64,000 nt of DNA from Candidatus Humimicrobiia bacterium (GCA_049647085.1 JBARXA010000018.1:25677-89676); one strand, 5' to 3'; positions 33,748-57,343 are shown, numbered from the stretch's first letter. A program made the numbers and translations. Notes: a model not told the origin generated them from the sequence alone.

Positions 33748-33796
33748 GTAAGGCTTTAGCCTTGCTTTAAAAGTAACCCTGAAGGGTTGTCCTACT
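33748..33796. repeat. palindromic REP-like element, copy 1 (two internal hairpins AAGGCT/AGCCTT and AACCCT/AGGGTT)
   Basis: GTAAGGCTTTAGCCTTGCTTTAAAAGTAACCCTGAAGGGTTGTCCTAC lies right after the kbl stop. It is near-identical to 46918-46970. Confidence 0.6.
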
Positions 33797-33807
33797 TTTA
33801 TGGAAAT

Positions 33808-34992
33808 ATGAAAAAAATGAGTAAAGTTGCAATTGTAAAATGTGAAAATTATGAAGAAGATGTAGTAAAAAAAGCAGTAGAAAAATCCATAAATTTATTA
33901 GGTGGAATTTCAAATTTTATAAATGAAAAGGATAAGGTATTTATAAAACCGAATCTTTTAAGAGCAAGTTCTCCAGAGAGTCTGATAATAACTCATCCTG
34001 CTTTAATTAAATCAGTTGCAAAACTTGTTAAAAATTTGGGTGCTGAAGTTACTATTGGAGATAGCCCTGGTGGTAAATTTACAAAAAATTCTCTCTCTAA
34101 AGTCTATAAAATTTCTGGATTAACAGATGTTTCAAAGGAAACTAGTGCTAAGCTAAATTGGAATACAAATTACTCTACTAAATCTAATCCTGAAGGTAAT
34201 ATTGTCAAATCTTTTGAGATAATAAATATAGCCTCCAAAGCAGATAAGATTATTTCTATTTCTAAGTTAAAAACCCACGGTTTCACTTATATAACTGGGG
34301 CTGTAAAAAACTTATTTGGATTAGTACCAGGTCTTAAAAAAATTGGATTTCATACAAGGTTTCAAAATGTAGACCATTTCTCACAAATGTTGCTTGATCT
34401 ATATATTTTAACAAAACCAGCACTCAACATAATGGATGCAGTAATTGCAATGGAAGGGAGCGGACCATCAGCTGGTGATGCTAAGAAAGTAGGATTGATA
34501 CTAGCAAGTGATGATGCAGTCTGTTTGGATTTAGTTGCAACCTATGCTATAGGTGTAAATCCATTGAAAGTACCAACTCTAAAAGCTGCTATAGATAGAG
34601 GTATGATTAGTGGAAAGATTAGTGATATAGATATTGTTGGAGAAGATATAAATTCAGTAAGAGTATTAGATTTTAAACCACCTCCAACTGAGAGAAGGGA
34701 TTATTGGTTTTATCCACCAGTTATTCGCAAATGGGCTATAAGAAATTTAAACTTAACACCTATTATTAAATCAAATTGCATTGGTTGTGGAGTTTGTATA
34801 AAAAATTGCCCGGTAAATGCTATAAAGTTAATATCAATAAATAAAATGTCAAAGGATAAAGATGTAAAGAAAAAAGCAAATATTGATTTAAAAAAATGTA
34901 TTAGATGTTATTGCTGCCACGAACTGTGTCCGGAAAAAGCAGTGGGATTAAAAAAACCTTTCCTTTTAAAAATGATTTCATTAAAATCCTAA
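33808..34992 (+). CDS. DUF362-domain protein with C-terminal 2x[4Fe-4S] ferredoxin domain
   Basis: The C-terminal motifs are CIGCGVCIKNCP and CIRCYCCHELCP. The listed TTG start (33787) lies inside the repeat element, so ATG 33808 is preferred. Confidence 0.6.
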   Translation: MKKMSKVAIVKCENYEEDVVKKAVEKSINLLGGISNFINEKDKVFIKPNLLRASSPESLIITHPALIKSVAKLVKNLGAEVTIGDSPGGKFTKNSLSKVYKISGLTDVSKETSAKLNWNTNYSTKSNPEGNIVKSFEIINIASKADKIISISKLKTHGFTYITGAVKNLFGLVPGLKKIGFHTRFQNVDHFSQMLLDLYILTKPALNIMDAVIAMEGSGPSAGDAKKVGLILASDDAVCLDLVATYAIGVNPLKVPTLKAAIDRGMISGKISDIDIVGEDINSVRVLDFKPPPTERRDYWFYPPVIRKWAIRNLNLTPIIKSNCIGCGVCIKNCPVNAIKLISINKMSKDKDVKKKANIDLKKCIRCYCCHELCPEKAVGLKKPFLLKMISLKS

Positions 34993-35064: not shown

Positions 35065-36303
35065 TTGTATTTTAAAAAATTGAGAGGTGGAATTTTGGAA
35101 AAAAAAATTATTGATTCATTAATAAAAGCTGGAAAATCAAAAATTGTATTAGTAGTTATTGACGGAGTAGGAGGTCTTGCTTTACCAGGTGGTAAGGGAA
35201 CTGAATTGCAAATTGCAAACACACCCAATCTGGATGCATTAGCAGCTGAGTCATCATGCGGTTTATTAGAACCAATTGCTGCTGGAATTACTCCTGGAAG
35301 TGGTCCTGCACATTTAGCACTATTTGGTTATGATCCTATAAAAAACAATATAGGAAGAGGTATTTTATCTGCTCTTGGGACAGGATTTGATCTCACTTCT
35401 AAAGATGTGGCAGCGAGAGTAAATTTTGCAACAGTGGATAAGGAAGGTAGAGTCCTTGATAGGAGGGCAGGGAGAATAAAAACTGAATTAAATAAAAAAC
35501 TTTGTGAAAAGATTCTGAAAAATATTAAATTGGATCCCTCCATTAAAATTTCCCTTTATCCTGAAAAGGATTATAGAGCAGTTCTTATATTAAGAGGAAA
35601 TGACCTTTGGGGAGATTTAATAGATACAGATCCACAAAAAATAGGAGTTGTGCCATTTGAAATAAAAGCAACCAACACTCGTTCAGAAAAAACTGCAAGC
35701 ATTGTCTCTGATTTTATATCACAAGTAAGAATTATCTTAGCCAATGAAAAACCGGCAAATATGTTGCTTTTAAGAGGATTTGACAAATACACCCCCTTTA
35801 AATCAATAAAAGAGAGGTATAGTTTAAAAGCCTTAGCAATTGCTGAGTATCCAATGTATAAAGGAATGGCTGAATTATTAGGAATGGAAATAGCACAAAA
35901 TATATCAGGATTAGATAGTCAAATTGAGGCTTTAAAAAAGAATTATGATAAGTATGATTTCTTCTTCTTTCATATAAAAAAGACAGATAGTTTTGGTGAG
36001 GATGGAGATTTTGATGCAAAAGTAAAAGAAATAGAGAAAGTTGATGCTATGATTCCTGAGATTGTTGAACTAAACCCGGATGTTTTGGTTGTTACATCTG
36101 ATCATTCTACACCTGCATTGCTTAAGTATCATAGTTGGCATCCTATTCCTGTAGTGATTAAATCAATTTATGCAAGAAAGGATTCAGTTACAAAATTTGA
36201 TGAAATAAGTTGTGCAAATGGAATATTGGGATTAAGACCAATGACTGACTTAATGCCAATTACTTTAGCGTGTGCTAATAGATTAGAAAAATATGGAGCC
36301 TAA
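35065..36303 (+). CDS. apgM: cofactor-independent phosphoglycerate mutase, archaeal-type (ApgM family; 'proposed homoserine kinase' clade)
   Basis: KIVLVVIDGVGG...GKGTELQIANTPNLDALA and C-terminal metalloenzyme-domain motifs (SDHSTP, HS.HP.P) are present. Confidence 0.75.
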   Translation: MYFKKLRGGILEKKIIDSLIKAGKSKIVLVVIDGVGGLALPGGKGTELQIANTPNLDALAAESSCGLLEPIAAGITPGSGPAHLALFGYDPIKNNIGRGILSALGTGFDLTSKDVAARVNFATVDKEGRVLDRRAGRIKTELNKKLCEKILKNIKLDPSIKISLYPEKDYRAVLILRGNDLWGDLIDTDPQKIGVVPFEIKATNTRSEKTASIVSDFISQVRIILANEKPANMLLLRGFDKYTPFKSIKERYSLKALAIAEYPMYKGMAELLGMEIAQNISGLDSQIEALKKNYDKYDFFFFHIKKTDSFGEDGDFDAKVKEIEKVDAMIPEIVELNPDVLVVTSDHSTPALLKYHSWHPIPVVIKSIYARKDSVTKFDEISCANGILGLRPMTDLMPITLACANRLEKYGA

Positions 36304-36403: not shown

Positions 36404-36784
36404 ATGCCATATAGCAAAATAGTTATGGATCATTTTTTAAATCCACGAAATGTGGGAGAAATAGACAATGCTGATGGAATAGGGGAAGTTGGTAACCCTA
36501 TTTGTGGTGATATTATGACTTTTTATATAAAAGTAAAAGATAATAAATTAGAGGATATAAAATTTAAGACTTTTGGGTGTGGAGCTGCAATAGCTGTTTC
36601 TTCTATTGTTTCTGAAACTGCAAAGGGTATGAGTTTAGAGGAAGCTGAAAAAATAACAAATAAAAAAGTAGCTGAAATGTTAGGAGGTTTACCACCTCAG
36701 AAACTTCATTGTTCTAACTTAGGAGCAAAAGCATTAAAAAAAGCTATTGAAAACTATAGACTTCTTTCTTCGGGACCATCATAA
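36404..36784 (+). CDS. NifU/IscU-type Fe-S cluster assembly scaffold
   Basis: HFLNPRNVG...GNPICGD...FKTFGCGAAIA...LHCS carries the three conserved Cys. Confidence 0.8.
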   Translation: MPYSKIVMDHFLNPRNVGEIDNADGIGEVGNPICGDIMTFYIKVKDNKLEDIKFKTFGCGAAIAVSSIVSETAKGMSLEEAEKITNKKVAEMLGGLPPQKLHCSNLGAKALKKAIENYRLLSSGPS

Positions 36785-37536
36785 ATTATTTGATCAAGCG
36801 GCACAGCTTTGAAAGGTTTTTCTCTTTCTTCCTGTTCAATTGCGTGAGCAACTAACCCGGCTGCTCTTGATACAATATAAAAACCCTTACCATATTTATA
36901 AGGAAATCCCATATCTGATATGATAGATGCAATTGCTCCATCTACATTTAGAATTATTTTTTTATTTAAAATATTTTTAATAGATTGCTCAATCTCAGAT
37001 ACTAGCTTACAATGCCCTCCATAAATTTTGAGATCTTTTGCTAATTTTAATAATTTCTTAGTTCTTGGATCGGATTTATGGTATGGATGTCCAAATCCTA
37101 ATATTCTTTTCTTTTGTAAATGATGTTTTTGCACAATTTCATTTGCTATTTGTGATAAAGTTTTATTTAGCCTTTCGCTTTCTTCTATTCCTTCTTGGAG
37201 AATCTTTGCACATCCTTCTATAGAGCCACCATGATATTTACCCAATGCTATAATGCCTGATGCTACACTCGCTTGTAGGGGAACACCTGATGATGCTACA
37301 AATCTTGTTGCATCTGCTGATGGAGCTGCTAAGCTATGATCGCAGCCTGACACTAACATTGCATTCATCATTTTACCCTCTTCTTTAGTAGGAAATTTCC
37401 CCATCCATAGAAGATATACAACTTCCCCAAAACTCTTTTTTCCTATAATTTTATCTAAAGCATAACCTCTAATTATGATTTTGTTAGGTTCAACTTTGGA
37501 TATAGCTGTTCTCCACTCAAATTTCTTCTCTTTCAT
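36754..37536 (-). CDS. short citrate-synthase-fold protein (citryl-CoA lyase / ACL-alpha C-terminal domain-like)
   Basis: The 260-aa protein has a citrate-synthase signature-like GFGHPYHKSDPR. The catalytic-region His is in SGCDHSLAAPSADATRFVASSG. This is the size of the Hydrogenobacter-type Ccl. Confidence 0.6.
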   Translation of the reverse strand: MKEKKFEWRTAISKVEPNKIIIRGYALDKIIGKKSFGEVVYLLWMGKFPTKEEGKMMNAMLVSGCDHSLAAPSADATRFVASSGVPLQASVASGIIALGKYHGGSIEGCAKILQEGIEESERLNKTLSQIANEIVQKHHLQKKRILGFGHPYHKSDPRTKKLLKLAKDLKIYGGHCKLVSEIEQSIKNILNKKIILNVDGAIASIISDMGFPYKYGKGFYIVSRAAGLVAHAIEQEEREKPFKAVPLDQIIYDGPEERSL

Positions 37537-37576
37537 TTTCCCTCCTGAAAATCAAGAGCTTTTACATTTAAATTCT

Positions 37577-37816
37577 CTAATATAATTTTTTTATAGTGAT
37601 TGCTTTTTGAGGACATTTTTCTAAACAAAGATTACAAAATACGCATTCATCTTCATTTTCCTCAATAATTGAAATTATTCCATTATTCTCTTCTAATTTT
37701 TCAAATTTAAAAATTTCAACAGGACAAACCTCTTCACATATTTTACAATTTTTAACTTTTTTACATTTATTATTATTAATTTCTACTTTTACAAACATTC
37801 CCATAATTTTCACCAT
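37577..37816 (-). CDS. 2[4Fe-4S] ferredoxin (79 aa)
   Basis: The Cys motifs are CKKVKNCKICEEVCP...CVFCNLCLEKCP. Confidence 0.7.
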   Translation of the reverse strand: MVKIMGMFVKVEINNNKCKKVKNCKICEEVCPVEIFKFEKLEENNGIISIIEENEDECVFCNLCLEKCPQKAITIKKLY

Positions 37817-37831
37817 AAAAATAAAATATTT

Positions 37832-38728
37832 TTAGCTTAATGATTCTTTGACATAATCAACTAATTGAGTTAGTGTATCCGCTACCAATACGCCAGCTCT
37901 TTTAAATGCTTCAATTTTTCCTTTAGCTGTTCCCTTTCCTTTTTGCACAATGACACCAGCATGTCCAAATCTCATTCCAGGCATCTCATCAACAAATCTT
38001 CCACCTATAAAAGCTATTATAGGTTTAGAATATGAATACTTTAAAATATAACTTGCTGCGTCTTCTTCTTGTGTACCACCCGGTTCACAAAAAAGTACAA
38101 CGGTTTTTGTTTGAATATCTTTTTCAAAAAGAGGAAGCAGTTCTCTAATTGTCATACCCACAATTGGATCTCCACCAACACTGATGCATGTACTTTGCCC
38201 TATCCCATTACTGGTTAATAAATTTGCAAGCTCTGTTGTCATTCCACCACTGGTAGAAGCAATTCCAACTGGACCTATCATATATGATTTTTTTGTTTCG
38301 ATTTGTGGTCCGCCAATAGCTCCAACCTTAGATTTACCAGGTGAAATTATTCCTAATGAGTTTGGTCCTATAACTTTTGTACCTTTTTGTTCTGCAAAAT
38401 CTAAAATCAAAACTACATCTTTTTTTGGGATTCTCTCAGTAAAAATTACAATAAGCTTTATATTTGCGTCTATTGCTTCTAATGCAGCATCTTTTGCAAA
38501 GGGAGGAGGAACAGATATAATTGATACATTTGCTATAAAGTTTTTCACTACATCATTAACACAATCAAAAACAGGGATTCCATGAATAGTCTGTCCTCCT
38601 TTTCCTGGAGTTACACCACCAACCACATTAGTACCATAATCAAGCATATATTTAGTAAATAATGATGCTTCTCTCCCTGTAATTCCCTGAACCAAAACTC
38701 TTATTTTCTCATCTATTAAAATACTCAA
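37832..38728 (-). CDS. NDP-forming acyl-CoA synthetase alpha subunit (SucD / CcsB-like, CoA-binding, phospho-His)
   Basis: VLVQGITGREAS (CoA-binding Rossmann) and the phospho-histidine loop MRFGHAGVIV are present. Confidence 0.8.
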   Translation of the reverse strand: MSILIDEKIRVLVQGITGREASLFTKYMLDYGTNVVGGVTPGKGGQTIHGIPVFDCVNDVVKNFIANVSIISVPPPFAKDAALEAIDANIKLIVIFTERIPKKDVVLILDFAEQKGTKVIGPNSLGIISPGKSKVGAIGGPQIETKKSYMIGPVGIASTSGGMTTELANLLTSNGIGQSTCISVGGDPIVGMTIRELLPLFEKDIQTKTVVLFCEPGGTQEEDAASYILKYSYSKPIIAFIGGRFVDEMPGMRFGHAGVIVQKGKGTAKGKIEAFKRAGVLVADTLTQLVDYVKESLS

Positions 38729-38776
38729 TTAATTCTCCATTTATAAAAAAATAAATCAATCGTTTATTATCTTTAA

Positions 38777-39970
38777 TTAGGAAATCATTTCTACTGCTGC
38801 TTTTGCAGCTTGATCTATAGAATAACTCCTATCCATATATTTTATTTTGTATTTTTTAAGAATTTTGTATCCATCCTCTTCATATGCACCTGCACTTCTA
38901 AATAAAACTGGATATTCACTTAGGTTTATATCTAATTCAACCATTGCTAAAATTACCCCTCTAGCTACTAAGTCCACTCTTGTGTTATTTAAAACATTAG
39001 TTATAACTGCTAATCCTTTTATGCCTGGTTTTTTTAGAATCAGTTTTGTTAGTTCTTTTACTTTCTTAACTGTAGGGTTACCACCAATTTCACAATAATT
39101 TGCTGGTTTTCCACCATGATATCTTATAGCATCAAAGATAGTAAGGGATGCCCCACCTCCTCCGATTAATAATCCCAAATCTCCATCAAACTCAACAACT
39201 CTGCCTGCAACACCTCTGTGGTCAATCTTATCAATTTTTTCTGCTTCTATTTCAAACTTTGTGGGAATTCTTGGGCTATCTTTCCTGATTGGTATTCCTA
39301 ATTGCTCTAATTCTTTATGTCTATAAAGAGCTTCCTGTTCAAGTTCTAAATGGGCATCTGCTGCAATTAACTTTCCATCTTGAGTCAATATCAAAGGATT
39401 TATTTCTGCTAAATCACAATCATATTTTTTAAAAATATTAAATAATTTAACAGCAATACCTGCAGCCTTAAACATATCTTTTGATTTCAGCCCCATATTT
39501 TTTGCAAGTAATTTTCCTTGATAGTTTTGAATTCCCCAGATCATATTAACAGGTAAAGTAAAAACCTTTTCTGGATATTTTTTAGCTATTTCATTGATGT
39601 CAATACCACCAAGAGAAGATGAAATTATTACAGGAGTTTTTTGAGATAGGTCATAAGTTATTCCAAGAAAAAGCTCAGAAGATGGAAACAGTCTTTCTTC
39701 TACTAAAACCTTTCTTACTTCAAATCCCTTTATTCTTAATGAAAATATCTTTCTTGCTAATTGCCTTGCCTCTTTGGGGTTTTTTGCAAATGATATTCCT
39801 CCAGCCTTTCCTCTACCAGTAGCTAAAACTTGAGCTTTTATAGCAACTTCTTTTTTAAGATTATCTGCAATCTTTTCTACTTCACCTGGAGTTGAAGCTA
39901 AGTAACCCTCGGGTATAGAGATAGCCTCTTTTTTAAATATAATTTTGCTTTCATACTCATATAATTTCAT
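38777..39970 (-). CDS. NDP-forming acyl-CoA synthetase beta subunit (SucC / CcsA-like ATP-grasp)
   Basis: MKLYEYESKIIFKKEAISIP...KAQVLATGRGKAGGI carries the ATP-grasp motifs. It has the 397-aa SucC size. Confidence 0.8.
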   Translation of the reverse strand: MKLYEYESKIIFKKEAISIPEGYLASTPGEVEKIADNLKKEVAIKAQVLATGRGKAGGISFAKNPKEARQLARKIFSLRIKGFEVRKVLVEERLFPSSELFLGITYDLSQKTPVIISSSLGGIDINEIAKKYPEKVFTLPVNMIWGIQNYQGKLLAKNMGLKSKDMFKAAGIAVKLFNIFKKYDCDLAEINPLILTQDGKLIAADAHLELEQEALYRHKELEQLGIPIRKDSPRIPTKFEIEAEKIDKIDHRGVAGRVVEFDGDLGLLIGGGGASLTIFDAIRYHGGKPANYCEIGGNPTVKKVKELTKLILKKPGIKGLAVITNVLNNTRVDLVARGVILAMVELDINLSEYPVLFRSAGAYEEDGYKILKKYKIKYMDRSYSIDQAAKAAVEMIS

Positions 39971-40040
39971 TAATTACTCAATCCTTTATTTTATAAGATA
40001 TTATCTTAAGGCTTGCCATTTAATTTATTTTTAATGATAT

Positions 40041-40095
40041 TGCACAGCCTGTCCTTGACCCTTGAGTGTAACGAAGGGGAAGGAAAGGGAGAAAC
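40041..40095 (-). repeat. dispersed ~35-nt motif, copy C (reverse orientation), about 75 nt upstream of the SucC-like gene
   Basis: The reverse complement TTCCCCTTCGTTACACTCAAGGGTCAAGGACA matches 6714-6750 (TTCCCCCTCGTTACACTCAGGGTCAGAATAACA). Confidence 0.55.
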
Positions 40096-40279
40096 TATAC
40101 CCAAAGCTTTCTATGCTTCTTTTTTATTAAAATTTTATTTATATTTTAATCTAAATAAAGGTTAATCAGTATAAAAAATAATTCAAATAATTTTACACGA
40201 AAAATAAATAAATGTAGAATAATAACTAGTTAACTACTATTTAGGGTTTTAAATATTACAATAGGAGGTTATTTTATAA

Positions 40280-40705
40280 ATGGTTGCAAGGAAAAGAAAA
40301 TTAAAAATAGTGCTTGGTGTAATTGGCTCTGATGTTCATGCAGTTGGAAATAAAATACTCGAAAATGTATTGACTGAAGAAGGATTTAAAGTAATAAATA
40401 TTGGAGTTCTCTCCCCTCAAGAGGATTTTATAAATGCTGCAATTGAAACTGCAGCAGATTTGATTGTTGTTTCATCATTATATGGTCATGGTGAAATAGA
40501 TTGCAGGGGAATGAGGGAAAAATGTATTGAAGCTGGAATTGGTGATATCCCATTATATGTTGGTGGAAATTTGGTTGTAGGAAAGAAGGATTTTACTGAA
40601 GTTAAAAAGATTTTTGAAGAGATGGGGTTTAATAGGGCTTATCCTCCTGGAACATCTCCTCAACAATTAATTGATGATATAAAAAAAGATTTTAATAATA
40701 AGTAG
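40280..40705 (+). CDS. glmS: glutamate mutase sigma (S) subunit, B12-binding
   Basis: [16 protein letters not shown]...[34 protein letters not shown] matches clostridial GlmS/MutS nearly motif-for-motif (DxHxxG B12 motif). Confidence 0.9.
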
Positions 40706-40718
40706 GAGATTTTTTATT

Positions 40719-42107
40719 TTGAGAACAGCACTTTTGATTGATTTTGGAAGTACATTTACCAAATTGGTAGCAATAGATTTAGAAAAAGAAATATTCTTAG
40801 GAAGCTCATCTCACCCCACTACAGTAGATGATGATGTGATGATTGGATTTCAAGATGCATTAGATGTATTGAATAAAAAGATATCTAAAAAAGATGAATA
40901 TTATAATTTAAAATTAGCTTGTAGTAGTGCTGCTGGAGGTTTAAAAATTGTAGCAGTAGGCTTAGTTCCTCTCTTAACTTCACAAGCAGCTAAAATTGCA
41001 GCTTTAGGAGCTGGTGGAAAAGTTTTAAAAGTTTACAGCTATAAATTAACTGCAGACGAAAGAGATGAAATTGAAATTTTAAAACCGGACTTAATACTGC
41101 TTTCAGGTGGAACTGATGGAGGAAATGAGAAGGTAATAATTCATAATGCAAAGGTTTTAAGCCAACTAAAGATAGATGTTCCAATTGTTTATGCTGGGAA
41201 TAAATGTTCAGCAACTATAGCAAAGAGAATTTTAAAAGAAAATAAAAAGTCTGTATCGATAATAGAAAATATCTTACCTGAGTTAAATTATTTAAATATA
41301 GAACCAGCTAAAGAATTAATAAGAAAACTCTTTCTATCAAGTATAATCAAAGCAAAAGGTCTTTCAAAAAGGATGGATTTCTTATCAAGTGTCTTAATGC
41401 CTACCCCATCAGCTGTTTTAAAAGCTGGAGAATTATTAGCAAAAGGTACAGATAACGAGGAAGGTATTGGGGATTTAATGTTAATTGATGTTGGTGGAGC
41501 TACTACTGATGTTTGCTCATATTCATTAGGACTACCAGGTACAGGTAGTTTTGTTGTAAAGGGTCTTCCTCAACCTTATACAAAAAGAACAGTTGAGGGT
41601 GATTTAGGAATTCGTTTTAGTGCTATGAATCTTTTAAATACAGCCAAAAAGGAAAATTTTATGAAGAAATGGAAAATAAAATTAAAGGACCTGGATAAGA
41701 AAGTTGAAAAGCTATCAAGAAATATTAATTTTATTGCTGAAGACAAGAAAGATATTGAGGTAGATAAGTTACTATCTGCAATATCTACTAAAATTGCAAT
41801 AAATAGGCATGTAGGAAAGTTTCAAACAAAATATACACCAATAGGTCCAGTAAATATTTTATATGGGAAAGATTTAAGAGATGTCCCTACTGTATTAGGA
41901 ACTGGTGGGGGTGTGATAAAAGCTAAGAATCCAAAGTCTATTTTGGAAAAATCTATATTTGATGAAGATGAGTCATACATATTAAAGCCAAAATCTCCAA
42001 AATTTTTATTAGATAAATATTATATAATGTTTGCTGTTGGACTTTTAGCTCAAAAAATGCCAGACTTAGCTTTAAGGTTATTAAAAAAGAATCTCATTTA
42101 TATATAA
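40719..42107 (+). CDS. glmL: glutamate mutase-associated protein L (GlmL/MutL, ATPase-like putative reactivase)
   Basis: This 462-aa protein lies between S and E as in the Clostridium tetanomorphum/cochlearium operons. It has an actin/Hsp70-like fold (DFGSTFTK, GG.K, DVGGATTD). Confidence 0.8.
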   Translation: MRTALLIDFGSTFTKLVAIDLEKEIFLGSSSHPTTVDDDVMIGFQDALDVLNKKISKKDEYYNLKLACSSAAGGLKIVAVGLVPLLTSQAAKIAALGAGGKVLKVYSYKLTADERDEIEILKPDLILLSGGTDGGNEKVIIHNAKVLSQLKIDVPIVYAGNKCSATIAKRILKENKKSVSIIENILPELNYLNIEPAKELIRKLFLSSIIKAKGLSKRMDFLSSVLMPTPSAVLKAGELLAKGTDNEEGIGDLMLIDVGGATTDVCSYSLGLPGTGSFVVKGLPQPYTKRTVEGDLGIRFSAMNLLNTAKKENFMKKWKIKLKDLDKKVEKLSRNINFIAEDKKDIEVDKLLSAISTKIAINRHVGKFQTKYTPIGPVNILYGKDLRDVPTVLGTGGGVIKAKNPKSILEKSIFDEDESYILKPKSPKFLLDKYYIMFAVGLLAQKMPDLALRLLKKNLIYI

Positions 42108-42142
42108 AAATAAAAAATTTAGAATATATTGGGTGGTGAGGA

Positions 42143-43597
42143 TTGGAGATAAAAAATATCAGGTGGGAAGAAGAGGAGTTTCTTAAAAAGAGAAAAGAAG
42201 TGCTAAAGAGCTGGCCAACAGGTTCTCAAGTAGATTTAGAGGAATCGATAAATTATCATAGAGCCATTCCAAAAAACAAAGTTTCAAAATTGGTTCTTGA
42301 AAAGGCAAAAAATGAGGGAAGAACCTTAACTCAACCAAGGGCAGGAGTTGCTTTAATAGATGACCATATTGAACTTCTTCGATTTTTAGAAAAGGAGGGG
42401 ATGGCTGACCTCCTACCAACTACAATTGATAGCTATACCAGGTTAAATAAATATGAGGAAGCTCAGAAAGGAATAGAGGAGAGTATTAGGTTGGGCAGGT
42501 CGATGTTAAATGGTTTTCCTGCTGTAAATCATGGAGTTAAAGGTTGTAGGAAAGTTTGTGAGTCTGTTAATGTACCAGTTGAAGTTCGTCACGGAACTCC
42601 TGATTCAAGATTATTAGCAGAGATAACCTTGGCAGGAGGTTTTACAGATTTTGAAGGTGGAGCCATAACTTATAATATTCCTTATTCAAAAAATGTTCCA
42701 ATTGAGAAAAGTATTAGAAATTGGCAATATGTTGATAGATTAATAGGATATTATCAATATAATGGTGTATCTATAAATAGGGAATCTTTTGGACCCTTAA
42801 CAGGAACTTTAGTTCCTCCATGTATCTCACATGCAGTTTCTATTTCAGAAGCATTACTTGCTGCAGCTCAAGGTGTAAAAAGTATAAGTGTTGGATATGG
42901 ACAATGTGGAAATTTGATTCAGGATATAGCTTCTATAAAATCATTATCAATTATAACAGAGCAGTATCTAAAAGAATTTGGATTTACTGATATTTTAGTA
43001 ACTACAGTATTTCATCAATGGATGGGAGGCTTTCCTCAAGATGAAGCTGAAGCATTTGCTGTAATTTCATGGGGAGCAGCAGCTGCTGGTCTTGGAGGTG
43101 CAACAAAAGTTATTGTAAAAACTCCACATGAGGCATATGGTATTCCTACTAAAGAAGCAAATGCTCTTGGGCTTAGAGCAACAAAACAGATTTTAAATAT
43201 GGTAAAAGATCAGAAGCTAACAGAAATTGAGTTGATTGAAAAAGAGATTGATATCATAAAAGAGGAAACAAAGTCAATTTTAGAAGCTGTATTGAATTTA
43301 GGAAAAGGTGATATTGCTATTGGTCTGGTAAGAGGATTTGAAGCAGGAGTAATTGATATTCCATTCGCTCCGAGTCGTTTTACCAAAGGAAAAATAATTC
43401 CAGTAAGAGATAATAATGGTTCCATCAGATTACTGAATGTTGGAAATCTACCTTTCTCAAAAAAAATAAGAAATTTTCACAAACAAAAGTTAGAGGAAAG
43501 AGGAAAAGCTGAAAATAGGAAACCATCATTTAAAATGGTAGTGGATGATATATATGCTATAAGCAGAGGTTATTTAGTTGGAAGACCAGAAAAATAA
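42143..43597 (+). CDS. glmE: glutamate mutase epsilon (E) subunit
   Basis: The 484-aa TIM-barrel subunit directly follows glmL. Its size and position are canonical. Confidence 0.85.
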
Positions 43598-43654
43598 ATT
43601 TTTATTAACTTTAAAAAATTTGATAACTTTATTAGAAGGGGAGGTTAATAAATA

Positions 43655-44890
43655 ATGAAAATAAAAAAAGTAGTTGCTTCAAAGGGATTTGCAGGTTTCT
43701 ATTATGATGATCAAGCAGCTATAAAATCTCATGCAAAACATGATGGATTCGCCTATTCAGGAGAACCTATTACTCCAGGCTTTAGTACAATAAGGATTGC
43801 TGGTGAAAGCATTTCAGTCATGTTAGTTTTGGATGAAGGTAGAATTGCATATGGTGATTGTGTAGCTGTTCAGTACTCTGGAGCAGCTGGTAGAGATGCA
43901 CTTTTTTTAGCTGATGATTATCTTCCTATTATAAATGAAAAAATTGCACCATTAATGGTTGAACGTGAGATAGAAAATTTCAAGAATATGGCTGAAGAGT
44001 TAGATAATTTAAAAATTGATGGGGAACGATTACATACTGCACTTCGATATGGAATAACCCAGGCTATTTTGAATGCTGTTTCAAGAAAAAAGCATATTAC
44101 TATGGCTGAGGTAATATCCCAGGAATATGGTATAGAAATTCAAGAGGAACCAGTTCCAATATTTGCTCAGAGTGGGGATGATAGGTATAACAATGCAGAT
44201 AAAATGATAATAAAAGGAATTCAGGTTCTTCCTCATGGACTGATAAACAATGTTGAAGAGAAGTTAGGTAGGAGAGGGGAGAAATTAATGGATTATCTAT
44301 CATGGCTTAGAACAAGAGTGGTTCAATTAGGTAAACCTGATTATAATCCTGTATTTCATCTTGATGTTTATGGAACATTTGGACAGGCATTTAATAATGA
44401 TATGGGAACAATTGCAAAATATATCATGAACTTAGAACGGATCTCTCAACCATATCATCTCAGGATTGAGGGACCTGTTGATGCAGGAAGTAAAGAAGGC
44501 CAGATAAAATCTATGCGAGAGTTAAGAACAGAATTAAAGAAAATAGGAAGTAAGACTGAAATAATAGCTGACGAGTGGTGTAATACATTTGAGGACATTA
44601 AAGACTTTGTACATGGAGAGGCTGCTGATATGATTCAGATTAAGGCTCCAGATTTGGGAGGAATAAATAATACTATAGAGGCTATTTTATTTTGTAAGAA
44701 ACATGGTGTGGGAGCGTATCTTGGTGGAAGTTGTAATGAAACGGATCGTAGTGCTCGAATATGTGCTCATATAGCTTTAGCAACAGGACCATGTCAGATT
44801 CTTGCAAAACCTGGGATGGGAGTAGATGAGGCTGTGATGTTAATAAACAATGAGATGCAAAGAACTCTTACACTTATAAAAAATAGATAA
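43655..44890 (+). CDS. mal: methylaspartate ammonia-lyase (beta-methylaspartase)
   Basis: It aligns end-to-end with C. tetanomorphum MAL: GFAGFYYDDQAAIK...GESISV.LVL..G...GDC.AVQYSGA.GRD, QIKAPDLGG and KPGMGVDE. Confidence 0.9.
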   Translation: MKIKKVVASKGFAGFYYDDQAAIKSHAKHDGFAYSGEPITPGFSTIRIAGESISVMLVLDEGRIAYGDCVAVQYSGAAGRDALFLADDYLPIINEKIAPLMVEREIENFKNMAEELDNLKIDGERLHTALRYGITQAILNAVSRKKHITMAEVISQEYGIEIQEEPVPIFAQSGDDRYNNADKMIIKGIQVLPHGLINNVEEKLGRRGEKLMDYLSWLRTRVVQLGKPDYNPVFHLDVYGTFGQAFNNDMGTIAKYIMNLERISQPYHLRIEGPVDAGSKEGQIKSMRELRTELKKIGSKTEIIADEWCNTFEDIKDFVHGEAADMIQIKAPDLGGINNTIEAILFCKKHGVGAYLGGSCNETDRSARICAHIALATGPCQILAKPGMGVDEAVMLINNEMQRTLTLIKNR

Positions 44891-51979: not shown

Positions 51980-54900
51980 TTACTCCATTAAGGGTCTCTC
52001 AGTTAATCCTTTTTCAACCATAAATCGAGGAAGTATTGTAGCTTTTTCATGCACTAAAACTTTTTCCCCTAATTTCAATTGAATTTTAGGTTTTTCTTCC
52101 TCAAATTTTAATCTATTTACTTGCTCCTCTTTTTCTAATTCTTTGCCATGTGGTAATGCAAAAATACCTATTTCTGTTCCTTCTTGAGTGAACTTTTTAT
52201 CAACCAAAGCGAGACCTATCTGGTATCCTTCAGCATTTGGTGCACAACTTGTAACATTTCCTATATATTGACCAATTATACTAACAACTACATCACCATT
52301 TTTAACTCTTTTAATACCCTTTCGATTCATTTTAAATCTAATCATATCCATCTTTCTTGATTTTTCTCTCTCCAAAAGTTTTTCCCTTCCTATGAAGAAA
52401 GGTTTATGAAATTTAATATATGGACCAAATCCTGCTTCAATGGGAGAGATGTTATATCTTCCAGCTAAGTCATTTCCAAAAAGGGGTAACCCAGCCTCTA
52501 TCCTTGTTGAATCTCTAGTTGCCAAACCACAAGGTTTTATTCCAAATTGCTTCCCTTTTTCTAACAGAAGATTCCATAGTCTTGCTGCGTCATCTGGATG
52601 TATATATAATTCATATCCAATATCTTCTCCTGTATAACCTGTTCGAGATATGAGCATTTCAATTCCAGCAAGATTTGTTTCAATAAATTCTGCTCTCTTT
52701 ATTCTTTTAAGTTCTCTCTTTTTTTCTTCATCTGTTGTAAGGCTTTTCAATAATTCTAATGAATTTGGACCTTGCAAAGCTATATCTATTTTCTGATCAT
52801 TTCCAGATGATTCATCTTTTAGATTTCTTATTATTACTGAGTTTTCAATCTCTTTTAAAGTATTATCTCTATCAATAATATATTTTTTAGAGTTAACGGC
52901 TTTTAACCACTTAAAATCTTTATCTTCATTTACAGCATTAGCTATCAGCATATATTTATCCTTTTTTCTGCGATAGATTATTACATCATCAATGATTTTT
53001 CCATCTAAATCTAAGAGATAAGTGTATTGTGACTGTCCATCTGAAATCCATTTAATATAATTTGATGTCACTATGTCTAAGAAGTTTATACAATTCTCAC
53101 CAGAAACTTCTATTACACTCATATGTCCAACATCAAATAAACCTACTGTCTCTCTTACTGCTCTATGTTCTTCAGATATACTTGTGTACCAAACTGGCAT
53201 CTCATAACCTGCAAAATTTATGATTTTATTGGTCAATTTTCTATGTTCCTCATAAAGTGGTGTTCTCTTTGGATTTTCCTTCTGTCTTTTTAAAATTTCT
53301 TCTTCAACTGATTTCAAGGGGAACTCTTTTTTATTTAGAACTGTATTTTTCTTGGTTTTTTCGCTATTAGCTTTCACTTTATTAAATTCTCTTTCAGAAA
53401 TAAAATATGATTGCTCATCCTTGAAGCTTTTTTCATCAAGAAGCTTACCGTGAAAGTATTTTTTAAATTTATTTTGACCAACAAAATACAATTGTTTTAA
53501 TACAAATAAATTTTTCAAATCATATAAACTATTTTTTAAACTAATTTCATATAAACTAACTCCATCAATTTTTTTCTTCTTTTTATCATTTCTTGAAAGA
53601 TCTTCATATATTGGAAAACCATTATCTTGTCTTAATTTTTCTCTTACCTTAAATCCTGCTGGAACTATATTAAATTCTTTCCCCTTTTCTAATAATAGAT
53701 TCCATAACTTAACTGCATAATTTGGATTTGTATAAAAATCATAATGCAGTTCTTCTTCAAAGTCTTCTTTATTATTATCTTCAATGTGATCATTGCCATC
53801 ACAATCATCATTAGCTTTATTATTATCACTACTGCTATTACTAGTAGTTTTGTATCCGTTCCTTGAGATTAAGCATTCAATTCCATCAATTATATATTTA
53901 ACAAATTGAAATTTTTTAATCTCAGCAAGCTTTTGGTTAATGCTTTTTATTACATCTTTTGAGTTAGGTCCATGAAGAGAAATTGCAACCATTTTCAAAT
54001 TCTCGTCTTCAATCTCCTTTAAATCATCAACCTTGACTGGTCCTTCCACTTTCTTGAATATCTCATCATCAAAAAGTATATAACCATCCGATATATTTCT
54101 CAGCCAGGTTTTTACGTAATCTGTATTAGATGGATTTGTCATAAGAATGTAGGTGTGTCTATCAAATTTATCTGGTTCAAGTTGATGGATTAAAACATCA
54201 TCAATTACCACTGCCTCTTTATCTAATAAAAAACTCCTTTGACTATAGCCTGGTTTTAATTTTGATATATCATTAGTAGTAATTTGCTGAAGAAAAGGTT
54301 TTGCTCTCTCACCAATAACTTTAATAAGACCATAATCGGACATATCTACCAGGACTGCTGAATTTTTTGAAGCCAAAATCTCATTTTTAATATCATTGTA
54401 TTTTGAAGGAATTAACCAACCATTTTTTTCCTCCAATTTTGCACCTAATTTCTTATGTTCATCTAATAGTGCAGTTTTTTTAACATTAGAATTTTCATTT
54501 AAAAACCAATAATGAGGATAACCGGATTTTTCAAATTCTTCAGTTTCAATTTCGCTTACTAACTTTGCAACATCTTTTTTTATCTCTTCAAATTTTGATA
54601 AATCCATCTTACCTCTCGGAAGTTGTCCTAACATTCCAATATAGAAATATGGATGTATATTTGTTAATATTCTATAAATAAATAAGGCAAGTCTTTTTAT
54701 TTGCTCCCTTGTTATTCCTCGCTGTGTTATCCATGGAGTACCTATTCTGATTCCACTGGCATCAGCTGCTGTTAAGTCCCCTGGTATGGTGTTTTTATTA
54801 GTGACAATTCCACATAAATCTAATATTCTTGCTGCTACTTCACCTTTTAAAGGAAGTCCTGTATAAGTTTTAATAGCATTTAAATCAATAACCACAAGAT

Positions 54901-56002
54901 GGGTATCTGTTCCATTATAAGAAAGCTTAAGTCCTAATTTTTGTAATTCATCAGCAAGTGTCTTTGCGTTTTCAGCAATTCTTTCCTGGAGTTTTTTAAA
55001 TTCTGGTGTTTGAGCTATTTCAAAAGCTACTGATATAGCAGCAAATTTGTTTGCATGTGGACCACCCTGTTCACCTGGAAAAACAGTTGTATCTATAATA
55101 TTAGCTTTATCTTCATCTGTTGTAAGAATAACTGCACCTCTAGGACCACATATAGTCTTATGGGTAGTGAAAGTTATAACATCTGCATAGCCAATAGGGC
55201 TTGGATATACACCAGCAATAGCTAATCCTGCACAATGTGCTATATCTGCAAATAGTATTGCTTTTCCAGGAACTGCATCTGCTATCTCCCTGAACTTCTT
55301 CCAATCTGGAGCCCAGGGATAAGAAGAGTATCCCGCAATTATCATTTTAGGCTTATATTCTATTGCTAATTTTTTTATCTCATCATAGTCTAATTTCTCA
55401 GTTACTCTGTTTACTTTATAGGAGATAATATTATATCTTTTACCTGATATGTTGAATTCAGAACCATGAGTTAGGTGCCCACCTTCAGGAAGCGCCATTC
55501 CCATTACTATGTCACTAGGTTCCACAAAAGCTTCATATACAGAATTGTTCGCAATGGATCCAGAAAGGGGCTGTATATTTACAAATATCTGATCAGCACT
55601 AATTTTTATCTCACTATTTTCTTTATCATTTGTAGCAAAACATTTAGCTATTCTTCTTTGAGCTAAACTCTCTAAAACATCTATATATTCAATTCCTTTG
55701 TAAAATCTCCTATCCGCATATCTTCGATAGTATGATAACTGATGACTTATATCATTTAACAGTTCTATTTTATCTCTAGTCATCTTAACTGAGGGATATC
55801 CTTCGCAATATACATTGTTAAATTGCGAACCTAATGCCTTAAGAACCGAAGATGGAGCAAAACTTTCTGAAGGAATTAGTATGATTTTTCTTTGTTGTCT
55901 TTCTTTTTCAAACTTAATTAGCTTAGAAATATAAGGATCAATCTCAGATAAATCCTTATATAAAATTGACTCAATATATTTTTTTTCTTCATTATCTGTC
56001 AT
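51980..56002 (-). CDS. giant fusion protein: serine hydroxymethyltransferase + degenerate aminomethyltransferase (GcvT-like) module + complete aminomethyltransferase (GcvT) module
   Basis: Residues ~35-470 are SHMT (LIPSESFAPSSVLKALGSQFNNVYCEGYP; PEGGHLTHG; PLP-Lys in TFTTHKTICGPRGAVIL). Residues ~510-800 are a GcvT-like N/central domain (LLDEHKKLGAKLEEKNGW...VLVDMSDYGLIKV...TGEAGYE-equivalent region). It has a Ser/Asn/Asp-rich insertion and no C-terminal barrel. A K-rich linker (~801-912) follows. Residues ~913-1287 are a complete GcvT (TPLYEEHRKL...FAGYEMPV.Y...GLFDVGHMS...RTGYTGEDIGYE...KPCGLATRDSTRIEAGLPLFGNDL... plus the GCV_T_C barrel). A 50-aa C-terminal tail ends the protein. Confidence 0.8.
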   Translation of the reverse strand: MTDNEEKKYIESILYKDLSEIDPYISKLIKFEKERQQRKIILIPSESFAPSSVLKALGSQFNNVYCEGYPSVKMTRDKIELLNDISHQLSYYRRYADRRFYKGIEYIDVLESLAQRRIAKCFATNDKENSEIKISADQIFVNIQPLSGSIANNSVYEAFVEPSDIVMGMALPEGGHLTHGSEFNISGKRYNIISYKVNRVTEKLDYDEIKKLAIEYKPKMIIAGYSSYPWAPDWKKFREIADAVPGKAILFADIAHCAGLAIAGVYPSPIGYADVITFTTHKTICGPRGAVILTTDEDKANIIDTTVFPGEQGGPHANKFAAISVAFEIAQTPEFKKLQERIAENAKTLADELQKLGLKLSYNGTDTHLVVIDLNAIKTYTGLPLKGEVAARILDLCGIVTNKNTIPGDLTAADASGIRIGTPWITQRGITREQIKRLALFIYRILTNIHPYFYIGMLGQLPRGKMDLSKFEEIKKDVAKLVSEIETEEFEKSGYPHYWFLNENSNVKKTALLDEHKKLGAKLEEKNGWLIPSKYNDIKNEILASKNSAVLVDMSDYGLIKVIGERAKPFLQQITTNDISKLKPGYSQRSFLLDKEAVVIDDVLIHQLEPDKFDRHTYILMTNPSNTDYVKTWLRNISDGYILFDDEIFKKVEGPVKVDDLKEIEDENLKMVAISLHGPNSKDVIKSINQKLAEIKKFQFVKYIIDGIECLISRNGYKTTSNSSSDNNKANDDCDGNDHIEDNNKEDFEEELHYDFYTNPNYAVKLWNLLLEKGKEFNIVPAGFKVREKLRQDNGFPIYEDLSRNDKKKKKIDGVSLYEISLKNSLYDLKNLFVLKQLYFVGQNKFKKYFHGKLLDEKSFKDEQSYFISEREFNKVKANSEKTKKNTVLNKKEFPLKSVEEEILKRQKENPKRTPLYEEHRKLTNKIINFAGYEMPVWYTSISEEHRAVRETVGLFDVGHMSVIEVSGENCINFLDIVTSNYIKWISDGQSQYTYLLDLDGKIIDDVIIYRRKKDKYMLIANAVNEDKDFKWLKAVNSKKYIIDRDNTLKEIENSVIIRNLKDESSGNDQKIDIALQGPNSLELLKSLTTDEEKKRELKRIKRAEFIETNLAGIEMLISRTGYTGEDIGYELYIHPDDAARLWNLLLEKGKQFGIKPCGLATRDSTRIEAGLPLFGNDLAGRYNISPIEAGFGPYIKFHKPFFIGREKLLEREKSRKMDMIRFKMNRKGIKRVKNGDVVVSIIGQYIGNVTSCAPNAEGYQIGLALVDKKFTQEGTEIGIFALPHGKELEKEEQVNRLKFEEEKPKIQLKLGEKVLVHEKATILPRFMVEKGLTERPLME

Positions 56003-56164: not shown

Positions 56165-57343
56165 TTATTTTTTATTGTTTTTACATGCCAAGGCTGATTC
56201 AACTAAAGCATATAATCCTCCTGAAACCAAGGAATGACCTCCAAGAACTATTGGTATTGAAGCATTAATTGCTTCGTAAGTAAACTCTCTTAGAAAAGTT
56301 TCAGATATTTTTTCAGGTTTTAGAAGGTCAGAGTAGAAGCGATCATTAGCTGATGGCCACATCTTGAAATGGGAAAGTATTACTCGGCTGTCTATAAAAG
56401 CTGCATCTGCAATTTGATCTATAATTTCAAAGAATTTTTTAACCCCAAATTCTTGCAAGTAAAATCCTAACAAAGAGCGAACTTCTTCTCTTTTTTGACG
56501 ACCACTAGCTCTCATTCCTCTCTCTTCAGCAAATAACCTAACTCTGCAAGCAGTATTATTCTCTAAATATGACCAAACATCTGAATTTGTTCTTCCAGCA
56601 ATAAGGACATTTGAATTTTCTATAGTAAAATATTTTAATGCCTTTTCTAATCTTGTTGTATTGATATCAAGACTTTCTATATAGTTTTTAATATTTTTAC
56701 TGAGTGCTGGGTGATTTTTAATAGTTAAAAGATCGATAGGAGTGTCAATGTCAAGTTGCGTTGCTGCATTTCTAGGAAGGGATATATCCTTAAAATTGCA
56801 ATTATTTTTTAAAATCCATGCAATCTCATTATCATTATTGAAAGGTTCAATTGAATTAACAATGTTTGCTGGTGAAAAAGCTATAAAGTCAGTTGAATAA
56901 AGGTTATTTGTTATAAGGATCTTTTCTTTATCTGATATCCTATCTTTATTTAATTTATTTACTATTTTATCTTTATCTAATACTGTTTTTATAATGTTTT
57001 TTAAATCCTCTATTTTTAGGAGAACGCCACTTCCTCCACCCATATAAAACAACTTTTCTATTTTGTATTTATTTATAAGTTCTTTAAGTTTTTTACCAAA
57101 ATGAAATTTTTTTTGAGGTTTATCAGGTTCTATAATTATGGATTTCCCTTTTAATTCATTTATTAAAACTTCTGAATTAGTTGATAATACAATTTTATCT
57201 ATAGTTTTTTCTTTTTCTTTAATTTCTAAAAACTTCTCAATTGTATCTTTTGTAGACAATTCAATTGCTCTTGATACCATCTTAACTGGTTCACTTTTAT
57301 TCTTTTTTCCAGCCATAATTAAAATATCTACTTTTGGATCCAT
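56165..57343 (-). CDS. hypothetical protein, possible N-terminal nucleotidyltransferase-like fold
   Basis: This 392-aa protein has no confident family assignment from motifs. It is co-oriented with and immediately upstream of the SHMT-GcvT fusion. Confidence 0.4.
   Translation of the reverse strand: MDPKVDILIMAGKKNKSEPVKMVSRAIELSTKDTIEKFLEIKEKEKTIDKIVLSTNSEVLINELKGKSIIIEPDKPQKKFHFGKKLKELINKYKIEKLFYMGGGSGVLLKIEDLKNIIKTVLDKDKIVNKLNKDRISDKEKILITNNLYSTDFIAFSPANIVNSIEPFNNDNEIAWILKNNCNFKDISLPRNAATQLDIDTPIDLLTIKNHPALSKNIKNYIESLDINTTRLEKALKYFTIENSNVLIAGRTNSDVWSYLENNTACRVRLFAEERGMRASGRQKREEVRSLLGFYLQEFGVKKFFEIIDQIADAAFIDSRVILSHFKMWPSANDRFYSDLLKPEKISETFLREFTYEAINASIPIVLGGHSLVSGGLYALVESALACKNNKK

Follow-up and report, generated by a model that had tools for sequence, protein, structure and literature searches.

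A ligase-lyase gene module with a small iron-sulphur protein beside the glutamate mutase operon of a Candidatus Humimicrobiia bacterium: a candidate route for ATP-dependent citramalate cleavage

The two-step logic of a CoA ligase followed by a lyase is already known from citryl-CoA synthetase/citryl-CoA lyase (CCS/CCL) and from the Mtk/Mcl pair, as are the enzyme superfamilies involved. In Hydrogenobacter thermophilus and Leptospirillum a succinyl-CoA synthetase (SCS)-like beta/alpha ligase (CcsAB; 6hxq) is followed by a lyase of about 260 aa with the citrate synthase (CS) fold (Ccl; 6hxp). A 64,000-nt stretch of a Candidatus Humimicrobiia bacterium genome (GCA_049647085.1, JBARXA010000018.1:25677-89676; hereafter the window) encodes on its minus strand a module made up of the beta and alpha subunits of an SCS-like ligase, a small iron-sulphur (Fe-S) protein and a lyase of the Ccl family. 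An earlier interpretation of the same DNA (the sequence-only reading) described four co-oriented genes with short spacers and compared them with CCS/CCL. All four open reading frames (ORFs) are confirmed, and the parallel in composition of a ligase beta and alpha subunit with a short CS-fold lyase holds. It is proposed here, with a probability of about 0.5, that the module encodes a citramalate (or mesaconate) CoA ligase and a CS-fold (S)-citramalyl-CoA lyase, which together would replace citramalate lyase. What is new is the Fe-S-associated ligase clade, the alternation of two lyase folds beside it and its apparent recruitment, with a CS-fold lyase, to the methylaspartate pathway; as a pattern of comparative genomics this has good support.

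The beta subunit (38777-39970, minus strand, 397 aa) is SCS-like and matches ATP-grasp_2 (3e-55). The alpha subunit (37832-38728, minus strand, 298 aa) matches CoA_binding and Ligase_CoA, and contains both the CoA-binding Rossmann domain (CoA_binding, 1e-26) and the phosphohistidine GHAG loop (RFGHAGVIV). The small Fe-S protein (37577-37816, minus strand, a 79-aa ORF) has eight Cys and matches Fer4 families. The CS-fold lyase (36754-37536, minus strand, 260 aa) contains GFGHPYHKSDPR and matches the C-terminal domain of Citrate_synt (3e-42). The spacers between these genes, in the order beta-alpha, alpha-Fe-S and Fe-S-lyase, are 48, 15 and 40 nt. Family matches of the module proteins are far beyond chance, with PDB E-values of 2e-61, 1.5e-63 and 5e-83.

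A glmS-glmL-glmE-mal operon (40280-44890, plus strand) is divergent from the module and begins 309 nt from the start of the beta-subunit gene. All four products are above their NCBIfam equivalog cut-offs: GlmS, the B12-binding subunit S of methylaspartate (glutamate) mutase (40280-40705; NF002612, 217 bits, cut-off 110), the mutase accessory protein GlmL (40719-42107; NF040745, 592 bits, cut-off 475), the mutase subunit GlmE (42143-43597; TIGR01503, 754 bits, cut-off 390) and methylaspartate ammonia-lyase, the product of mal (43655-44890; TIGR01502, 588 bits, cut-off 286), which forms mesaconate. The sequence-only reading overlooked these genes; its aside on citramalate fits better than its main suggestion of citrate, because methylaspartate-pathway genes are adjacent.

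The identity of these genes gives the first step of the proposed pathway, from glutamate through methylaspartate to mesaconate. The four module genes would form a single unit, an ADP-forming phosphohistidine dicarboxylate-CoA ligase (beta, alpha and the Fe-S protein) with a CS-fold acyl-CoA lyase, and would complete the pathway in an uncultured, amino-acid-fermenting sediment bacterium. A mesaconase or class-I fumarase with its gene outside the cluster would hydrate mesaconate to (S)-citramalate, the ligase would convert citramalate, ATP and CoA to (3S)-citramalyl-CoA, and the Ccl-type lyase would split this to acetyl-CoA and pyruvate. In a sub-variant, mesaconate itself would be ligated and the hydration would take place at the level of the CoA ester. 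What is observed here are the identities of the genes, their synteny, the structure of the clades and the residue patterns; the substrates, the direction and the source of the hydratase are inferred. Because class-I fumarases also act promiscuously as mesaconases (PMC4682846), the cluster itself would not have to carry a dedicated enzyme for this step. Compared with the clostridial citramalate lyase, which depends on an acyl carrier protein (ACP), there would be no net ATP cost since acetyl-CoA gives back the invested ATP. By Cahn-Ingold-Prelog reasoning (3S)-citramalyl-CoA matches (3S)-citryl-CoA exactly in steric terms, with CH3 for the pro-R CH2COO- arm.

The ligase pair was likened to CcsAB in the sequence-only reading, and this part is not borne out. 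The beta subunit scores best against true SCS (3ufx_B, 218 bits; Hydrogenobacter CcsA, 174 bits), the alpha subunit scores best against archaeal SCS alpha (2yv1/2yv2, 282 bits for 2yv1_A; CcsB 6hxq_A, 197 bits), and at 298 aa the latter is without the extra 35-55 aa or so of CcsB. The same reading held that the pair is not the SCS of the tricarboxylic acid (TCA) cycle, which agrees with the scores, as both subunits fall under the NCBIfam SCS cut-offs (beta, TIGR01016, 302.8 vs 375.55; alpha, TIGR01019, 313.3 vs 353.2). The C-terminal part of the beta subunit matches Pfam Citrate_bind (2e-9) and not Ligase_CoA. The NCBIfam malate-CoA ligase (MtkA) model reaches 206 bits, with a cut-off of 604 bits.

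Relatives were collected with two profiles, one of Ccl run on genomes and one of the beta subunit run on metagenomes, which gave 160 further loci. Trees were built by neighbour joining (NJ), that of the beta subunits with 200 bootstraps. Beta subunits from loci with the Fe-S gene (ferredoxin- or Fdx-type) are monophyletic in 190/200 replicates and group with SCS, apart from CcsA and ACLY, in 152/200; the canonical CcsA clade is recovered in 199/200. The pair is therefore placed beside SCS and not within it, and not with CcsAB either. It belongs to a separate, large and unnamed clade of SCS-like ligases, and it fits the definition of the ligase-ferredoxin trio: an N-x-T/S-R loop, no Arg of the ACLY R379 type, an alpha subunit of about 300 aa and an Fe-S gene directly 3' of alpha. 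The N-x-T/S-R loop of the Fdx type is carried by 79 of the 80 best metagenome matches to the beta-subunit profile. Members come from soil, sediment, Acidobacteria, Chloroflexi, archaea and high-GC lineages; a beta subunit 98% identical to that of the window is present in a marine-sediment metagenome, and the proteins of L009, a metagenome-assembled genome (MAG) labelled 'Actinomycetes bacterium', are 90-98% identical to those of the window one by one. Databases name the clade's beta subunits 'ATP-grasp domain-containing protein', 'acetate-CoA ligase family protein' or, at JGI, 'SCS beta/citryl-CoA synthetase large subunit'. One apparent long beta homologue (P0128) is a chimeric duplication and was left out.

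The acid site of the beta subunit was aligned with human ACLY (sequence verified against 3pff), Hydrogenobacter CcsA, two SCS beta subunits and the sequences from the loci. It is a hybrid. The LNNTRVD and EIGGNPT loops are of the CcsA/ACLY type, where SCS has GGIxRxD and GGGA, so the GGI loop that binds succinate in SCS is replaced by NNTRVD. The CcsA/ACLY motif VRRxGP is FRSAG in the window, and the Arg equivalent to ACLY R379 is absent. All Fdx-type beta subunits have FR(S/V/I)(A/P)G at this site, with Ser, Val or Ile for the R379-type Arg in every member. Sun et al. (2010) reportedly described a salt bridge between R379 and the pro-R carboxylate of citrate. The pro-R carboxylate is exactly the group replaced by CH3 in citramalate. 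R379 is also the residue that is mutated to disable citrate binding (R379A; PMC10593830).

The 260-aa protein is a genuine member of the Ccl family, as the sequence-only reading had it. Its best PDB match is Hydrogenobacter Ccl (6hxp_A, 211 bits, E 2e-61, aligned residues 8-244), compared with about 74 bits for the citrate-synthase-homology modules of ACLY and about 72 bits for citrate synthases. Three NCBIfam citryl-CoA lyase subfamily models are passed (NF004866, 287 > 245; NF004869, 278 > 212; NF004868, 216 > 193), and the protein is under the cut-off of the equivalog NF004864 (205 < 261). It consists only of the large, C-terminal domain of citrate synthase (residues 49-240 on Citrate_synt profile positions 162-352 of 357). 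The CS-type residues listed in Table 2 of PMC13147460 were checked. H102, H150 and D199 correspond to the catalytic H274, H320 and D375 of CS, and they are invariant in an alignment of 22 sequences together with R158 and R224 (CS R329 and R401); R258, the equivalent of CS R421, is also kept. The placement check proposed with the sequence-only reading thus puts the protein in the Ccl family with the CS catalytic His and Asp retained, in a sister clade to Hydrogenobacter Ccl. In the NJ tree its clade, which also takes in every other trio-linked Ccl and many lone Ccl-like genes of archaea, is separate from that of Hydrogenobacter Ccl and the CcsAB-linked Ccls. Clade-specific differences lie beside the catalytic residues: GxGH-P vs GYGH-K/R, DHS vs DHG, and Asn85 to Val. 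The change from K/R to P after the catalytic His was considered as the loss of an acid ligand and rejected, as the position maps to R976 of human ACLY, which contacts CoA (PMC10115795). Two of the lone genes, in Bathyarchaeia (L005, 7191-8783; L006, 7190-8789), directly follow thyX, and no SCS-like ligase lies within 8 kb of them.

Gene neighbourhoods were counted over a non-redundant set of 31 loci, each flanked by at least 4 kb on either side. An acyl-CoA lyase accompanies the trio in 27 of them; the lyase is CitE-type in 20 and Ccl-type in 7, and the two never occur together, an alternation typical of non-orthologous displacement. The product of the ligase would be the substrate of the lyase, because of this frequent company and because start and stop codons often overlap. 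The CitE-type gene abuts or overlaps the trio in L148, L134, L119 and L098. For the CitE-type partners, the citE and RipC/Ccl ((S)-citramalyl-CoA lyase) models give scores under their cut-offs; MaoC hydratases of the RipB/Ich kind (15/31) and acyl-CoA dehydrogenases (7/31) occur with them. An MmgE/PrpD gene follows the module in L007 and L020 and is also found in L098. This partner set is the gene set of the bacterial itaconate/methylsuccinate (C5-dicarboxylate) cluster, which contains Ich, a CitE-type Ccl, methylsuccinyl-CoA dehydrogenase and an MmgE/PrpD methylsuccinate isomerase, and in which, where there is no CoA transferase gene, the acid can be activated by SCS (PMC12290011). The larger CitE-family partners, of about 354 aa, have sub-cut-off NCBIfam matches to RipC/Ccl and to the haloarchaeal malyl-CoA/beta-methylmalyl-CoA lyase models. 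They presumably resemble Chloroflexus Mcl. A GTP-dependent phosphoenolpyruvate carboxykinase gene recurs nearby in 11 loci.

Loci without the Fe-S gene have a different context. Isocitrate dehydrogenase (IDH) is within the flank in 6/6 of them, namely the canonical CCS/CCL loci L076, L078, L084 and L087 together with L040 and L066, and no IDH, aconitase or citrate transporter gene is found beside the Fdx-type loci. Three Fdx-type loci are tied to 2-oxoacid:ferredoxin oxidoreductases (OFORs), so the clade is probably not mono-specific. In L168 (6282-11337) and L169 (6483-11337) a Kor-like OFOR (alpha, beta, gamma) is co-linear and overlapping with SucC-SucD-Fdx, and L169 continues with a fumarate-reductase-like FrdB/FrdA pair. 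In the archaeal L089, PorGDAB, which points to pyruvate chemistry, is divergent from Ccl-SucC-SucD-Fdx. In L002 (4710-7255, minus strand) genes for a CN-hydrolase and an amidohydrolase come after the trio on its own strand and Ccl is divergent, which points to yet another feeder pathway for the module.

The divergent arrangement of the module and glmSLE-mal is kept in the window's relatives L001, L008 and L009. A different arrangement is found in L012, a Candidatus Aerophobetes MAG, where eight genes lie on one strand in the order SucC-SucD-Fdx-Ccl-[P-loop NTPase]-GlmS-GlmE-MAL and their reading frames overlap or nearly abut. The window's beta subunit belongs to the FRSAG subclade (148/200) and that of L012 groups with L004 (144/200). 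The association with glm-mal was assembled at least twice, because the two beta subunits are in different subclades (sisters in 0/200). The 294-aa ORF of L012 (3873-4757, plus strand) was considered as a mesaconase and rejected; it is a P-loop NTPase (GGQGAGKS) with no Pfam family and no homologue in the window. It sits in the place of GlmL and is probably a substitute for it, and it may be a new type of glutamate mutase chaperone. No literature linking Ccl with glutamate mutase was found.

The spacer between the two operons (39971-40279) would be a divergent control region common to the module and the glm operon. Across the window, L001, L008 and L009 it contains a conserved block of about 90 nt (about 40134-40224); the entire spacer of L009 is 161 nt. 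A promoter-like TTTACA-17-TAGAAT at 40192-40220 lies inside the block; matches in a promoter and terminator scan of the spacer are no commoner than in shuffled sequence. No riboswitch or structured RNA was detected in the spacer, two tRNAs being the only Rfam matches in the entire window. Within the otherwise AT-rich spacer, a GC-rich island of about 65 nt (40044-40110) is absent from L009 and not conserved in L001 or L008, so it is probably a lineage-specific insertion.

The small Fe-S protein is a defining component of the unnamed ligase clade, because of its occurrence, its coupling to alpha and its family-specific termini and motifs. Its gene directly follows alpha in 28/31 loci, and its start is mostly -4 to +17 nt from the alpha stop. 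The family consensus is F(I/V)..V near the N-terminus, CPV.IF, N.DEC..C.LC, and KLY at the C-terminus. The sequence-only reading placed the ferredoxin outside the described system; it is indeed an extra relative to CcsAB/Ccl, but it is not an oddity of this locus. The true start is likely Met5 (MGMF..., start codon at 37804), giving 75 aa, because the N-terminus is conserved family-wide. The Cys motifs C-x5-C-x2-C-x3-CP and C-x2-C-x2-C-x3-CP provide eight Cys for two [4Fe-4S] clusters; one ligand set is universal, and the second, kept in the window's clade, has disappeared from a large high-GC clade. Redox is not required by the chemistry of either enzyme, ligase or lyase. The protein may be the electron carrier or acceptor for a pyruvate:ferredoxin oxidoreductase acting on the released pyruvate. 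A ferredoxin serving a neighbouring OFOR is weakened as a general explanation by the presence of an OFOR in only 3/31 loci. The tight coupling to alpha, the family-specific termini and the persistence of the protein with a single cluster in the high-GC clade point more to a possible structural or regulatory third subunit.

The citramalate proposal is supported by the linkage to glm-mal in two independent lineages and arrangements, by the absence of a citramalate lyase or any other route onward from mesaconate in the window, and by an acid site that keeps the hydroxy-acid loop of CcsA/ACLY and has lost the R379-type Arg. Further support comes from the CitE-type partners, which seem to be related to (S)-citramalyl-CoA lyase and to bring a C5-dicarboxylate gene set, from the presence of IDH beside the Fdx-less CCS/CCL loci and never beside the Fdx type, and from the pyruvate chemistry suggested by PorGDAB in L089. 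Several observations weigh on the other side. The lyase is about 50% identical to a characterised citryl-CoA lyase, and it has no residue change that would signal the loss of an oxaloacetate carboxylate ligand, since R158, R224 and R258 are all kept. To our knowledge, no CS-fold enzyme uses pyruvate. Neither glm-linked cluster (the window and L012) encodes a mesaconase, a CoA-ester hydratase or a CitDEF-type citramalate lyase; among the scanned ORFs of at least 110 aa in the 64-kb window there is no mesaconase (class-I fumarase), MaoC hydratase or CitDEF-type enzyme, and the missing hydratase counts against the pathway in both clusters. The L168 and L169 beta subunits are 52-55% identical to that of the window and in the same FRSAG subclade; the closest beta relatives outside the lineage include such Kor-linked loci, which suggests that some trio members use succinyl-CoA. 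Most loci with Ccl and the trio have no glm genes (L002, L004, L007, L015, L021, L034 and L089), and their contexts are heterogeneous. The support for the role assigned to R379 is partly indirect. The trees are NJ only, with moderate subclade support (about 52-74%). The fuller claim, that a three-component ligase with a dedicated [4Fe-4S] protein and a CS-fold (S)-citramalyl-CoA lyase form a new citramalate cleavage route finishing glutamate fermentation, is tentative, with the odds somewhat against it.

The alternative that survives best is a genuine citryl-CoA synthetase/citryl-CoA lyase acting on citrate, either cleaving it (in citrate fermentation or in a reductive branch of the TCA cycle) or working backwards as a citrate synthase that conserves ATP and feeds 2-oxoglutarate and glutamate. 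The glm-mal adjacency would then reflect general glutamate metabolism, and the methylaspartate cycle also starts with citrate synthesis. This is rather unlikely and still plausible, chiefly on account of the lyase, in which no oxaloacetate-binding residue is visibly lost: the catalytic and Arg residues of the CS type are all retained, the citryl-CoA lyase subfamily cut-offs are passed, and Hydrogenobacter Ccl is the closest structure. The NNTR(V/I)D and GGNP loops are common to the beta subunit and CcsA, the subunit matches Citrate_bind, and the JGI label for its relatives includes citryl-CoA synthetase. However, the beta subunit is without the Arg conserved in ACLY and all canonical CcsA, and the pair falls phylogenetically outside CcsAB. 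No aconitase, IDH or citrate transporter gene is found in the window, in line with the Fdx-type loci and in contrast to the canonical ones, and the ligase clade is mostly partnered with CitE-type lyases and C5-dicarboxylate genes.

A divergent SCS is improbable. It would make ATP from the succinyl-CoA of a 2-oxoglutarate:ferredoxin oxidoreductase with the ferredoxin as its redox partner, and the Ccl-like protein would be an independent short citrate synthase or lyase. The best scores against SCS structures, the sister position to SCS (152/200), the Kor-like and fumarate-reductase-like genes of L168 and L169, and the lone Ccl-like genes of many archaea are all in its favour, but both subunits are under the curated SCS cut-offs and the succinate-binding loop is replaced. 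The window has no OFOR, sdh or frd, and in 27/31 loci the trio comes with a lyase, the start codon of one gene often overlapping the stop of the next. Another hydroxy-dicarboxylate, either (S)-malate via malyl-CoA to acetyl-CoA and glyoxylate as in the thiokinase/lyase pair of the serine cycle, or beta-methylmalate via beta-methylmalyl-CoA to propionyl-CoA and glyoxylate as in the haloarchaeal methylaspartate cycle, is very doubtful: the beta pocket would suit such an acid, the 354-aa partners and the nearby carboxykinase are compatible with it, and the methylaspartate cycle does run from glm and mal to CoA-ester chemistry (PMC5592240), but the beta-methylmalyl route needs a mesaconyl-CoA hydratase that is absent from both glm-linked clusters, the malate-CoA ligase model is far below its cut-off, and the bond handled by the CS fold lies at the acetyl methyl and gives acetyl-CoA and a 2-oxoacid, which suits citramalyl-CoA or malyl-CoA and not beta-methylmalyl-CoA.

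If citramalate is the substrate, the lyase would be the first CS-fold enzyme with pyruvate as the 2-oxoacid, which would widen the substrate range of the fold, and the Fe-S protein, if it is a third component of the ligase, would be the first Fe-S subunit in the SCS/ACLY superfamily. The module would supply the final steps that the methylaspartate pathway lacks in lineages without citramalate lyase, and would change how glutamate fermentation is recognised in metagenomes. Genes of this kind are now read as reductive TCA markers ('citryl-CoA lyase/synthetase') and can yield false calls of autotrophy. A large unnamed clade of SCS-like ligases is also defined, with a conserved Fe-S partner and a swap between two unrelated lyase folds. 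Even with citrate as the substrate, this Fe-S-linked ligase clade, distinct from CcsAB, would be worth characterising.

The remainder of the window is rich in amino-acid catabolism, with tdh, kbl, gcvH, gcvPA, gcvPB, a fusion of serine hydroxymethyltransferase (SHMT) with GcvT and an M32 carboxypeptidase; the GC content of the lineage is about 30%. Its methionyl-tRNA synthetase (MetRS) reaches no more than 50-53% identity with named sequences, be they from Actinomycetota MAGs, Firmicutes MAGs or Thermoanaerobacter. The sequence-only reading noted no sucAB or sdh nearby, and indeed none is present among the ORFs scanned in the window, nor is aconitase or IDH. The fusion is an unusual 1340-aa ORF (51980-56002, minus strand) beside gcvH/gcvPA/gcvPB, with an SHMT domain (about residues 91-442) and GCV_T aminomethyltransferase domains in three stretches, the best at 916-1193. 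For two ORFs (56165-57343, minus strand, 392 aa; 62360-63091, plus strand, 243 aa) Pfam gives no match at E <= 1e-4. Convergent with the Ccl-like gene, and overlapping its 3' end by 31 nt (36754-36784), is a NifU/IscU Fe-S scaffold gene (36404-36784, plus strand), a neighbour that is kept in L001. A DUF362 protein with a C-terminal 2x[4Fe-4S] domain (33787-34992, plus strand) also lies near the module in L001, and L004 has one at a distance of about 8 kb from its module. The gene for an ApgM-type cofactor-independent phosphoglycerate mutase (35065-36303, plus strand) is close to the module, and such a gene is close to canonical CCS/CCL loci as well (L076, 192-1430; L084; L087), perhaps by coincidence or perhaps through a conserved link to C3 metabolism.

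Among the known systems, CcsAB with Ccl is similar in that the lyase is a true family member with the catalytic His/His/Asp and the N-N-T-R-(V/I)-D and GGNP loops of the beta subunit are common to both. It differs in that the window's ligase is in another clade, with 31-40% identity to canonical CcsAB and no VRRxGP Arg, and that its alpha subunit has 298 aa and not the 335-353 aa or so of CcsB. The window also has the additional conserved Fe-S gene and a glutamate mutase context instead of IDH and the reductive TCA cycle, and its lyase is in the sister clade with GxGH-P in place of GYGH-K/R. SucCD shares the ATP-grasp beta subunit and the CoA-binding alpha subunit with its GHAG phosphohistidine, has the highest pairwise scores, and some relatives are linked to OFORs. 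However, the window's ligase is under the SCS cut-offs, has NNT for GGI and Citrate_bind for Ligase_CoA, and comes with a third Fe-S gene and a paired lyase. ACLY/AclAB is homologous to all three enzymatic parts and shares the acyl-phosphate, phosphohistidine and CoA thioester chemistry, but in ACLY the parts are fused into one or two polypeptides, Arg379 is there to bind citrate, and an Fe-S protein is lacking.

In the serine cycle, MtkAB and Mcl also use an SCS-like ligase to activate a hydroxy-dicarboxylate and a lyase to release acetyl-CoA and a 2-oxoacid. The MtkA model does not recognise the window's ligase at its cut-off (206 vs 604 bits), Mcl has the CitE fold, and there is no Fe-S protein. 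The CitE-family (S)-citramalyl-CoA lyases (RipC/Ccl, CLYBL) and the clostridial citramalate lyase resemble the module in the proposed reaction, (S)-citramalyl-CoA to acetyl-CoA and pyruvate, and in its place in C5-dicarboxylate and glutamate catabolism, and a CitE-type enzyme is the alternative partner of the trio (20/31). The clostridial enzyme is ACP-dependent and needs no ATP-dependent ligase. The CitE-family lyases have the HpcH/CitE TIM barrel, whereas the window's lyase has the all-alpha citrate synthase fold.

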